30,298 nt of DNA from assembly GCA_020348305.1 (NCBI GenBank), contig CP070746.1:2507788-2538085 (forward strand), in the 5' to 3' direction. This stretch comes from Desulfobacterales bacterium (GTDB lineage Bacteria; Desulfobacterota; Desulfobacteria; Desulfobacterales; JAHEIW01). Below the pieces are notes generated by a model. It ran no database searches, was not told the origin of the DNA, and saw nothing but the letters and a program-made list of their open reading frames with translations. Position numbers and translations under genes: made by a program. This document shows positions 19,547-26,949 of the stretch, one piece after another; the stretch's first letter is position 1, and each line of letters starts with the position of its first letter.

Positions 19547-20155
19547 TTATTTCCATGACTCGTCTTTATACAGCCCATTTCTGCTTATTTCTAGCGCTGA
19601 TTTTGCTAAATCCATATCTTTCTTAAGTTCAGAGTTCGGATTTAAATTAAATGCCTTTCTGTAAGCTTCGTAAGATTTAGCATAGTCCCCAATTTTGTAA
19701 TAGCAGTATGCCACATTTTCCAATATTAAAGAATCATCTCTTTCTAAATTTAAACTTTTTTCAAAATACGATATAGCCTCACGGTATTCATTTCTTATTA
19801 CGTTAATACGTCCCAAATAGTCTATCGCAGCTTTGTTATTAGGATTAGTTTCGAGAACCTTTCTAAAATATTCTTGCGATTCAATATACCGTTGTGCGTT
19901 GAATGAGGCCTTGGCAAGACCATACATAATCTTTATGTTATTGAAACCATATTGCATTAACTTTTTGTATTCATCTATTGCCTCTCTATTTTTACCTTCA
20001 GATCTGTATAACTCGCCCAACAAAAAACGAGCGTGATAATCCTCAGGTTTATGATTTATCCTCTTTATACAGAACTCTTTAACAGAATGTATTGAAAAAT
20101 TAAATCTAGGGACGAGATATATCAACAACCGGATATAAAAAATATATTTTTTCAT
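19547..20155 (-). CDS. Secreted or membrane-anchored TPR-repeat protein; candidate immunity protein for the upstream RHS toxin
   Basis: 202-aa ORF, very AT-rich. The N-terminus is hydrophobic (MKKYIFYIRLLIYLVP), followed by at least four TPR-like repeats (...AIDEYKKLMQYGFNN..., ...YFRKVLETNPNNKAAIDYLG..., ...AISYFEKSLNLERDD..., ...YEAYRKAFNLNPNS...). It starts 14 bp after the RHS gene stop on the same strand. Confidence 0.7.
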   Translation of the reverse strand: MKKYIFYIRLLIYLVPRFNFSIHSVKEFCIKRINHKPEDYHARFLLGELYRSEGKNREAIDEYKKLMQYGFNNIKIMYGLAKASFNAQRYIESQEYFRKVLETNPNNKAAIDYLGRINVIRNEYREAISYFEKSLNLERDDSLILENVAYCYYKIGDYAKSYEAYRKAFNLNPNSELKKDMDLAKSALEISRNGLYKDESWK

Positions 20156-20169
20156 ATTCAGTAAAACCT

Positions 20170-26100: not shown

Positions 26101-26949
26101 ACTCGATCCGATCTGGACGTTTTTCCCGATAAACGCGCCCTCGGCAACGCTCCCCTGCTTGATCAAAATGGTGCCGTTGGGTGCATAGATGTTTGCCTTT
26201 AGACTGTTGTTGCAGCCAATTGTTGCCGCTTTAGGGGTGGCTCCCAAGTTGCCCCTGGTGCCGTTGATGCCGTTGACATAGATGCGGATGTCCTTGGCAC
26301 TGATACCTGATTTATCAGCCGGACCGATGACCGCGTTTAGTCCCGGCTCCAGCCGGTTGTTAATAATCAGGTCGGTGGGTGCTTGAAAAAACACCTTTGC
26401 ATTGCGATAGCCCAGATCAAGGTTTTCAAAATGATAGGTACCGCCGGTCAAAATGAGCGTGGCATTTGCTCTCACCAGAATCTCACCGTAAGCACCAGGC
26501 TCCAGCACAAGGGTTTCACCCCGGGGGAGGTCATGATTTTCAGTCCCGGGAGCCGGTGCAGGGAAATCCGGCAAGGATATATCCAGGGGCATTTGTAAGG
26601 GGGTATATTCGTTGCCCCTGATAGTGCCGAGGTTCATCAGCTCATTGTAATGGACATCGTCTACTGAAGCATTTATTTTGATTTTGACAGTGTCTGCATA
26701 GATCGACGTACCATCCGGCATGTATACCTTTTTGCCGATGATTACCTCTGACTGGGGGCCAGGCCATAGACCAAGGCTTGCATTTTTGACACCGATCTTG
26801 CCACTTTTAACCGTAGCACCTTGACGAATCCAGATACTATCTGTGGCAAATACTGAAAATGAAGAGAGGTCGTTGATCGCATGGGAGAATTCTGGAAAGG
26901 AAGGAAAAATTACAAGCACAGCAAGCAGGCAGAAAATCTTTCTTAGCAT
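20170..26949 (-). CDS. Teneurin-like YD-repeat/RHS polymorphic toxin (about 2259 aa from the probable start; the long track ORF begins 30 codons further upstream at 27039)
   Basis: The probable start is the ATG at 26949, preceded by GGAGG 5 nt upstream, giving a signal peptide [24 protein letters not shown]. Domains in order: a CarbopepD_reg/TTR-like domain ([41 protein letters not shown]); an Asp-rich Ca-binding-like stretch ([26 protein letters not shown]); at least 6 NHL repeats (GYSGDGGxATEA...GNLYIAD..N.RVRKVD...GIITTVAG); many YD/RHS repeats; an RHS core ending in ...[11 protein letters not shown] (DPxGL autoproteolysis motif); then a 131-aa C-terminal domain with no recognisable motif. 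Confidence 0.9.
   Translation of the reverse strand: [2259 protein letters not shown]

Follow-up and report, generated by a model that had tools for sequence, protein, structure and literature searches.

Bacterial teneurin-like proteins (TLPs) were described in February 2026 as polymorphic toxins (Raoelijaona et al., Nat Commun 2026; PMC13018210). In these proteins the YD shell encloses a hypervariable C-terminal domain (CTD) of ~15 kDa, which is cleaved at the RHS motif. In the TLP of Bacillus inaquosorum (BiTLP), a second cut occurs at G723/S724 and a C719-C2216 disulfide fastens the cargo to the FN-plug; this hydrophobic cargo permeabilises E. coli only if it is exported. A diverse gene located directly downstream confers immunity, as demonstrated for the M. 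fibrata ART toxin. Thermodesulfobacteriota are among the phyla listed with TLPs, and lipoprotein signals (SPII) are predicted for the Gram-negative members (PMC13018210). The TLP class itself is thus published and is not new. Here we analysed a stretch of 30,298 nucleotides from a Desulfobacterales bacterium (contig CP070746.1; hereafter the window), in which the gene of a 2259-aa RHS protein is followed by that of a 202-aa tetratricopeptide repeat (TPR) protein. We consider it probable that this locus is a two-gene operon encoding a TLP polymorphic toxin and its cognate partner, the C-terminal tail of the TLP being toxic and the TPR protein neutralising it.

The RHS protein was first compared to the described TLPs. 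Its open reading frame (ORF), as called, spans 20170-27039 on the (-) strand; the NCBI start for the identical protein P0011 (100% identity, from a Desulfobacterales metagenome-assembled genome, MAG) lies at 26949 (MLRKIF...), which gives 2259 aa plus stop (20170-26949, (-); ORF, translation and Pfam/NCBIfam domains). Residues 399-2126 align with the 'Teneurin-like protein' of B. inaquosorum, BiTLP (PDB 9pt5_A/9ifo_A, E=0, 1036 bits), and the alignment is continuous over BiTLP residues 395-2145. Alignment to animal teneurins is weaker (E~1e-90), and that to Rhs proteins of type VI secretion systems (T6SS) covers the core only (e.g. 8cp6_B). All domains being encoded on the (-) strand, the protein starts with a Sec-type signal peptide (residues 1-24, 26878-26949, with a presumed cleavage site; Kyte-Doolittle 19-residue maximum 1.83, no lipobox), followed by a variable region with no confident family in the Pfam scan (residues 25-398, 25756-26877), where the matches were limited to DUF7305, at its cutoff with 27 bits, and to weak ones of hexapeptide-like type. 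N-terminal regions also differ among the homologues. Then come a teneurin TTR-like domain (TTR_TEN1-4, residues 399-484, 25498-25755; PF25020 E=1.2e-15), a stretch corresponding to the TIP region (residues 485-767), which aligns with the matching BiTLP stretch so that both TTR and TIP are present by alignment, and an FN-plug (residues 768-830, 24460-24648; PF24329, 23.7 bits, under the cutoff), which falls inside the BiTLP alignment. They are followed by an NHL beta-propeller (residues ~900-1200, 23350-24252; PF25021, TEN_NHL, E=4e-48; PF01436 E=4e-34) and a YD/RHS shell (20575-23202; PF25023, TEN_YD-shell, E=5e-40; PF05593 E=9e-35). The shell ends in the RHS core (Rhs_assc_core, residues 2047-2125; TIGR03696 E=1.9e-20; DPIF...x18...DPRGL).

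The order FN-plug, NHL propeller, YD-shell is that of the teneurin superfold, and the two DPxG-type motifs ~20 residues apart, the second ending in DPxGL, constitute the aspartyl autoprotease motif of RHS cores. Judged by sequence, every feature by which a TLP can be recognised at this level is present. A preliminary description of the locus had likewise proposed a secreted 2259-aa protein with an RHS core ending in DPxGL, which holds; the C-terminal region (CT) following this motif is 134 residues long, rather than the 131 first reported. Delivery by T6SS was considered and rejected: the protein carries a Sec signal, neither PAAR nor DUF6531 was found in it with Pfam/NCBIfam, and no T6SS genes were found in the 30-kb window.

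To position the locus within its family, the full-length protein was used as query. This retrieved 382 proteins at E<=1e-20, and the homologue counts given here rest on the best 120 of them. All of these have the TTR-NHL-YD-shell organisation, come from Desulfobacterota and related MAGs, and are 50-69% identical to the window protein, typically over ~80% of the query. After DPxGL they carry mutually unrelated C-termini of 40-170 aa, many of which are Gly/Ala-rich and hydrophobic. The C-terminal polymorphism on a shared scaffold which the preliminary description proposed to look for is therefore present. The next gene, in 67 genome loci, usually encodes a small protein with 2-4 predicted membrane segments; in the closest homologue (P0012, 65% identity, 94% coverage), the CT is another one and the gene behind it encodes a polytopic membrane protein of 213 aa. 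As a separate observation, TLPs appear abundant in uncultivated Desulfobacterota (382 matches at E<=1e-20; 67 genome loci, L016-L082), including Desulfosarcina, Desulfonema, Desulfoluna, Desulfosudis and NaphS2. They are much commoner there than the published isolate-based survey suggests, in which TLPs were described as rare.

The BiTLP alignment also allowed the processing sites and the tether to be located. Window residues C720 and G725-S726 (24772-24792, (-)) lie just upstream of the FN-plug match and line up with BiTLP C719 and G723-S724; they are the predicted tether cysteine and N-terminal autoproteolysis site, a role taken over from BiTLP (PMC13018210). Using a BLAST-based column mapping to locate the corresponding FN-plug Cys and GS columns, we found that C720 (24790-24792) is kept in 101/120 homologues and S726 in 117/120. 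We infer cleavage after L2125 (DPRGL/F) from BiTLP L2144. On the cargo side, exactly one Cys is present in 75 of the 97 recognisable homologue CTs, usually after a Pro ('..PC'), and in about 53/95 homologues the CT ends at most 4 residues past this Cys. The window CT also has a single Cys, C2189 (20383-20385; ...SSAC/PAY...), followed by 70 more residues. A C720-C2189 disulfide tether is thus predicted, and the conserved Cys pattern, matching BiTLP C719-C2216, suggests that such a tether is general.

By sequence, then, the cargo is bipartite. Module A, residues 2126-2189 (20383-20574, (-)), consists of a hydrophobic helix, an acidic linker and Cys2189, and is recognised from its sequence and its DNA homology to loci L008 and L013. 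Module B is the post-Cys tail, residues 2190-2259 (20173-20382, (-)), defined by sequence, by its DNA block and by its phmmer relatives. It is a 70-aa Pro/Trp-rich segment closing in a cationic helix. The TPR gene (19547-20155, (-), Pfam TPR matches) starts 14 nt after the RHS stop on the same strand, as noted in the preliminary description.

That tail and TPR gene belong together is indicated by their linkage. Tails of the window type, which end in FHNP, are followed by a TPR orthologue in 7/7 independent loci, at a distance of -1 to 32 nt, versus 0/52 loci with other CTs (Fisher p=3e-9, a figure inflated by shared cassette ancestry). Besides the window (gap of 14 nt, TLP scaffold, TPR protein taken as the reference), these loci are L005/6/7 (14 nt, TPR 68% identical to that of the window, YD-shell gene with its 5' end missing), L001/2/3 (32 nt, 62%, orphan fragment behind a DUF6531 Rhs, tail frameshifted), L009 (overlapping ATGA, 64% over 66 residues up to the end of a short contig), L010 (32 nt, 65%), L011/12 (14 nt, 60%) and L084 (13 nt, 49%, orphan-like fragment, then another orphan with a different CT). 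Pairwise identities of tails and TPR proteins correlate (Pearson 0.78, Spearman 0.61). Among 5.8 billion proteins, the relatives of the CT and those of the TPR protein number no more than a handful each, and all close TPR orthologues found are encoded directly behind the same CT tail; a TPR gene conserved independently of the RHS gene, which the preliminary description named as a refuting condition, was not encountered. One could still suppose that the TPR gene is a chance neighbour, for instance a housekeeping TPR or envelope-assembly factor, since TPR proteins are ubiquitous and Foldseek gives generic TPR matches only. This is effectively refuted by the rarity of the orthologues and their invariable position behind one tail, by a gap kept at 13-14 nt in four loci, and by the presence of tail and TPR gene in one contiguous DNA block.

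This block was delimited by DNA comparison. A segment of ~760 nt (20334 to 19575), which begins ~54 codons ahead of the RHS stop and extends to where the TPR gene ends, behaves as one unit and is 70-77% identical to L005, L010, L001 and L011, and to L009 up to the contig end. The preceding block (20630 to 20412), comprising the end of the core and the hydrophobic/acidic segment, matches other loci, L008 and L013, at 74-79%. The junction between the two blocks lies near the Cys2189 codon. In L013 the same hydrophobic/acidic segment is joined to a tail rich in Cys, and the gene behind it is not a TPR gene; in L008 the tail is diverged (...APLWKKIARAIMDLIRAGNP) and precedes a diverged, non-orthologous TPR-like gene. 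A remote version of the tail occurs on another TLP (P0087, L014), with a gene for a 210-aa TPR protein 12 nt later. Pre-Cys segments of the tail-bearing loci are unrelated, mostly 15-54% identical, and by this comparison the segment up to Cys2189 behaves as a generic linker. Since tail and TPR gene share one DNA block while the flanks differ, the unit preserved by recombination is [tail + TPR gene], the signature of a toxin-immunity (or cargo-partner) cassette.

Cassettes with this type of tail sit on differing RHS scaffolds: TLPs, DUF6531-type Rhs proteins (relatives in L001 and L008) and orphan fragments. In L001, L084 and L005, an orphan CT + TPR cassette is located downstream of another Rhs gene, a pattern which the preliminary description had suggested searching for. 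More generally, an orphan 3' core fragment with an alternative CT and an immunity gene is present in related loci L001, L005, L036 and L084; no second RHS-core (orphan) fragment was found in the window. Sequence comparison thus shows one cassette, made up of the final ~54 tail residues and the TPR gene, to be exchanged among TLP, DUF6531-Rhs and orphan contexts. In L001/L002/L003 (9374-9970), the tail of the orphan Rhs fragment is frameshifted identically in three related assemblies and the TPR gene is intact; L010 carries an intact version of this fragment. The L001-L003 arrangement fits an immunity gene kept after decay of its toxin, and could also come from a shared assembly error.

What the tail itself might do was approached from its sequence. 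The ~55-residue consensus begins with GPL.. and continues later with (D/N)FM..P.D(Y/F)(D/N)KW..W....(K/R)KF.AK(I/V)...FHNP. A phmmer search with the 70-aa tail gave 15 representatives among 1.84 billion representative proteins, and the 12 of these that were retrieved are all Rhs/YD C-termini or short C-terminal fragments. Searches of Pfam, NCBIfam and PDB sequences were empty for the CT and for the tails of its relatives. An AlphaFold2 (AF2) model of 131 aa of the CT, from a 4-sequence alignment, is of low confidence (predicted local distance difference test, pLDDT, 45); in it, one hydrophobic and one acidic helix are accompanied by a long coil rich in Pro and by a terminal helix of 27 residues (CT positions 102-128), and no globular fold is predicted. 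The terminal helix has a charge of +6/+7 and a hydrophobic moment of 0.37-0.68, within the range of cecropin and magainin; taken at +6, its moment is 0.45. Action of the tail on membranes is proposed from this cationic amphipathic helix and from the BiTLP CTD being a membrane permeabiliser.

The composition of the CTs leaves room for another division of labour, in which the post-Cys tail would serve as an appendage for targeting, anchoring or receptor binding, the hydrophobic pre-Cys segment would be the toxic part, as in the majority of the family, where the CT stops at the Cys, and TPR or HExxH partners (see below) would process, dock or regulate the tail. As about 53/95 homologue CTs end within 4 residues of the conserved Cys, toxicity could lie wholly before it; many of these Cys-ending CTs are Gly/Ala-rich and hydrophobic, the BiTLP permeabiliser is hydrophobic as well, and a sister subtype of the tail is paired with a metallopeptidase-like protein. 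The pre-Cys module of the window, however, is common to L008 and L013, where it is joined to other tails and other next genes, and no small membrane-protein gene accompanies it; a toxic module of this kind would lack its immunity gene. The hydrophobicity of the pre-Cys module is moreover sub-threshold (Kyte-Doolittle 1.34), and what recombination preserves is the tail with its partner. We regard the appendage role as rather improbable.

The sister subtype deserves description since it bears on recognition of the tail. It keeps the core GDKYGPLW.APGMPGW...DP.DP.(F/W)W.KP.NW.KMSKW.K.KW and ends with ...LKKAAGALTGAGGVGI. In L087, L088, L089/90 and L092, no TPR gene follows it; the next gene encodes a conserved soluble protein of ~150 aa with a GLALGHE(I/L)DHH (HExxH-like) motif (L087 662-1180, L088 335-757, L089/L090 3196-3675, L092 675-1139; contig reading). 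Further copies occur in L001 (8233-8703, (-)) and in L006, where the copy is a pseudogene located behind the TPR gene (1875-2420; contig reading). Pfam, NCBIfam and PDB searches with this protein were empty; it could be an alternative immunity protein or a peptidase processing the tail. The type of partner, TPR or HExxH, switches with the last ~15 residues of the tail, which points to recognition of the C-terminal helix or end of the tail by the TPR protein.

The TPR protein was then considered on its own. It matches TPR_2 (E=7e-21) and other TPR families in Pfam, and its AF2 model (pLDDT 91) shows five TPR helix pairs (residues 22-196) preceded by a 13-residue N-terminal helix (pLDDT ~65-70). 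Foldseek of this model against PDB returned generic TPR solenoids only (consensus TPR/CTPR, OGT, MamA, PilF, PEX5). By the searches made, neither the tail nor its TPR partner could be matched to a known family, in agreement with what had been anticipated for both. An all-TPR solenoid encoded directly after a toxin C-terminus is the hallmark of TPR-type immunity proteins, and this is the arrangement found here. The export signal first attributed to the TPR protein could not be upheld: its N-terminal segment, although strongly conserved among orthologues, has a Kyte-Doolittle maximum of 1.22 (<1.6), contains two Arg and has no AxA-type cleavage site, which makes export by this segment doubtful. 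The net charge of the protein is +8. A role as secretion helper (PilF/BamD-like) was rejected, as the TPR gene tracks the tail rather than the scaffold.

These properties raise the question of a tail-specific chaperone or holdase, which would bind the cationic helix in the cytoplasm of the producer until export and encapsulation are finished, in the manner of the class II TPR chaperones of type III secretion (T3SS); protection from incoming toxin would then be provided by something else or not be needed. The TPR protein lacks a convincing export signal while the TLP is Sec-dependent, the TPR partner in L014 has no hydrophobic N-terminus, and strict co-transfer of tail and TPR gene suits a chaperone as well as an immunity protein. 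A weak similarity to LcrH/SycD is also detected (36 bits, for a model cutoff of 104.8), but this is generic TPR similarity. In every polymorphic toxin system studied, on the other hand, the tightly coupled downstream gene is an immunity gene, as shown for the M. fibrata TLP, and the orphan cassettes L001-L003 keep their TPR gene despite a frameshifted tail, typical of immunity genes retained for protection. We therefore judge a pure chaperone function unlikely, and tail and TPR protein are, from the comparative evidence, most likely a toxin-immunity pair. The proposal of such a pair in the preliminary description is to this extent supported by polymorphism, linkage and orphan cassettes.

For the two-gene toxin-immunity operon we propose the following scheme, the first part of which is transposed from BiTLP. 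The 2259-aa protein would be exported by Sec, and its FN-plug/NHL/YD-shell cage would fold around its own C-terminal region of ~15 kDa. Self-cleavage would occur after L2125 (DPRGL/F) and at G725/S726, and the cargo would stay tied to the N-terminal fragment by the C720-C2189 disulfide. The tail, a Pro/Trp-rich stretch followed by the +6/+7 amphipathic helix, would be the toxic moiety and would most probably act on the cytoplasmic membrane of the target cell. The TPR protein would neutralise it in the producer and its kin by binding it, probably by the C-terminal helix, in the TPR groove.

Several points weigh against this scheme. At ~55 residues the putative toxin would be very small, and the CT model has a pLDDT of 45. 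The compartments do not obviously match, the TLP having a Sec signal and the TPR protein no convincing one; a cytoplasmic appearance is also shared by the diverged TPR partner of L014 and by the HExxH partners found with the sister subtype. Complementarity between a TPR protein of +8 and a helix of +6 is not obvious. If the HExxH partner were a processing enzyme rather than an immunity protein, as it could be, this would favour a non-immunity role for the partners. Finally, given the shared ancestry which inflates the linkage count, the weight of the linkage argument rests on the differing flanks.

The surroundings and composition of the locus are as follows. The RHS core has a GC content of 47.5% and the window as a whole one of 47.2%; values fall to 45.8% for the first CT segment, 40.0% for the CT tail and 31.9% for the TPR gene, the spacer being at 40.6%. 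The lower GC of the TPR gene relative to its neighbours is therefore borne out, and the AT-rich island reported for the pair is real for a stretch of ~1.1 kb (tail, TPR gene and spacer); the body of the RHS gene is at window average. In the same way, the horizontal acquisition proposed for the pair would be restricted to the tail/TPR cassette, as this alone looks foreign and the gene pair as a whole does not. A terminator-like hairpin lies 62 nt past the TPR stop (19468-19485, (-)) and a second one upstream of the RHS gene (27238-27265, (-)); bracketing the pair, they suggest a separate two-gene transcription unit, both being obtained from a consensus scan only. As initially described, the pair lies between nitrogen genes, with glnA/P-II genes on one side (14799-18182) and a NifA-type activator gene on the other (27464-28987; Pfam/NCBIfam), and beside a Y1 element and an IS3 remnant. 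The latter (~19334-19477, (+); ...IPYFIEYMYNHKLLHSAIGYRPQCEFE...) corresponds to the C-terminus of an IS3-family OrfB by six-frame translation and tblastn, with matches to plasmids at E~1e-3 under genes annotated 'IS3 family transposase'; a Pfam scan of the IS3-like 47-aa peptide was empty.

Elsewhere in the window, a second AT-rich dip (GC 0.36-0.40) was observed at 12500-13500, around an Lrp/AsnC-type regulator gene (12823-13263, (+)); it has the nitrogen genes on one side and, on the other, a Hdr/Mvh/MetF-type cluster that includes a glutamate-synthase-like gene (744-12540, (-)). At 13623-14784 (+), two ORFs overlap: one of 114 aa is P-II-like, its Pfam match being limited to profile positions 1-87, and one of 285 aa has only a partial SPFH/Band_7 match. 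Upstream of the first glnA, this ORF pair may represent a gene that was disrupted or fused.

The Y1 (HUH) transposase-like gene of the window (18265-19236, (-); PF01797 E=2e-11) carries a C-terminal helix-turn-helix and is co-oriented with the pair; against NF047646 it scores 61 bits, under the cutoff of that model. Similar genes recur right after the CT-partner pair, on the same strand, in 11 of the 42 genome loci whose downstream sequence reaches 3 kb or more, and are also present in L015 (15601-16605), L089/90 (L090 3872-4816), L001 (a fragment, 8998-9375) and the window; those of L064 lie at 8435-10928. In L036 one copy follows the CT-immunity pair of the main gene and another its one orphan pair (8560-9999 and 13053-13544). 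In L001 the end of the Y1 fragment coincides exactly with the start of the orphan Rhs fragment. As these counts stand without a background Y1 copy number, the recurrence is a lead and not a result. The upstream flank was rejected as a control for it, since this flank falls within the RHS gene of 6.8 kb. A broader possibility, to which we attach little probability, is that the post-Cys tails form a new superfamily of ~55-residue Pro/Trp-rich cargos, attached behind the tether Cys of RHS/TLP cages and each having one of two dedicated partners, TPR (FHNP) or HExxH (GALTGAGG), and that the adjoining Y1 (HUH) transposases assist their movement among TLP, DUF6531-Rhs and orphan loci. If true, this would constitute a dedicated single-strand-DNA transposase route for the diversification of polymorphic toxins.

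Finally, the locus can be set against the described systems. With BiTLP (PDB 9pt5/9ifo, PMC13018210) it shares the TTR/FN-plug/NHL/YD-shell/RHS-core organisation, aligned end to end (E=0), the DPxGL motif, the G/S site, the tether Cys, a hypervariable CT of ~15 kDa and a gene directly downstream. It differs from BiTLP in the N-terminal region, in the 70-aa extension of the CT past the tether Cys and in having a TPR protein as partner. Its signal is of the SPI type without lipobox, unlike the SPII predicted for the Gram-negative TLPs of that study, and, unlike in TLPs, the cassette is also found on non-TLP Rhs genes and orphan fragments. The TLP paper makes no mention of TPR, orphan modules or transposases (PMC13018210).

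Tse5 (RhsP1) of Pseudomonas aeruginosa (PMC9637101, PMC10684867) offers another parallel: an Rhs shell, with an RHS core homologous to that of the window (8cp6_B), encloses a small non-enzymatic, membrane-targeting C-terminal toxin. Tse5 is delivered by T6SS (PAAR/VgrG), its immunity protein Tsi5 is a membrane protein and not a TPR protein, and its CT has no sequence similarity to the window tail, for which pore formation is only inferred. In Pfam, NCBIfam and PDB, no sequence or fold homology of the 134-aa CT to a known pore-forming CT was found; the terminal helix is alike in physicochemical terms only.

TPR-type immunity families are themselves already known. TPR-Imm1-4, described from the S8-PTS of Gram-positive bacteria (PMC9424270), are TPR solenoids whose genes come directly behind the C-terminus of the polymorphic toxin, which they are proposed to bind. 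These families belong to other phyla and other secretion systems and face globular toxins (e.g. BECR RNases); the window TPR protein is likened to them by its architecture.

SycD, LcrH and IpgC are TPR class II chaperones of type III secretion and hold amphipathic translocators. Like them, the window protein is small and all-TPR, and might keep hold of a peptide, amphipathic or hydrophobic, from a partner that acts on membranes; it differs by a similarity that is only generic, by the absence of T3SS and by another genomic logic.

With classical Rhs loci (E. coli/Salmonella rhs, H-rpt/ISAs1; PMC3150448), the relatives of the cassette share orphan 3' core + CT + immunity cassettes downstream (L001, L005, L084, L036), and also common are an AT-rich tip relative to the core and a transposase gene adjoining the cassette. 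The window differs by having no orphan fragment and by a transposase of the Y1/HUH type instead of ISAs1. The general picture of polymorphic toxin systems is unchanged by these comparisons. The novelty lies in a cargo/partner family that is rare and unannotated, and in the location of the cargo behind the tether Cys, which provides a concrete handle on TLP cargo release; with a cargo of ~55-70 residues, hence chemically synthesisable, toxicity and TPR binding are directly testable. Exchange of the cassette with classical Rhs genes links the TLP and Rhs delivery scaffolds.

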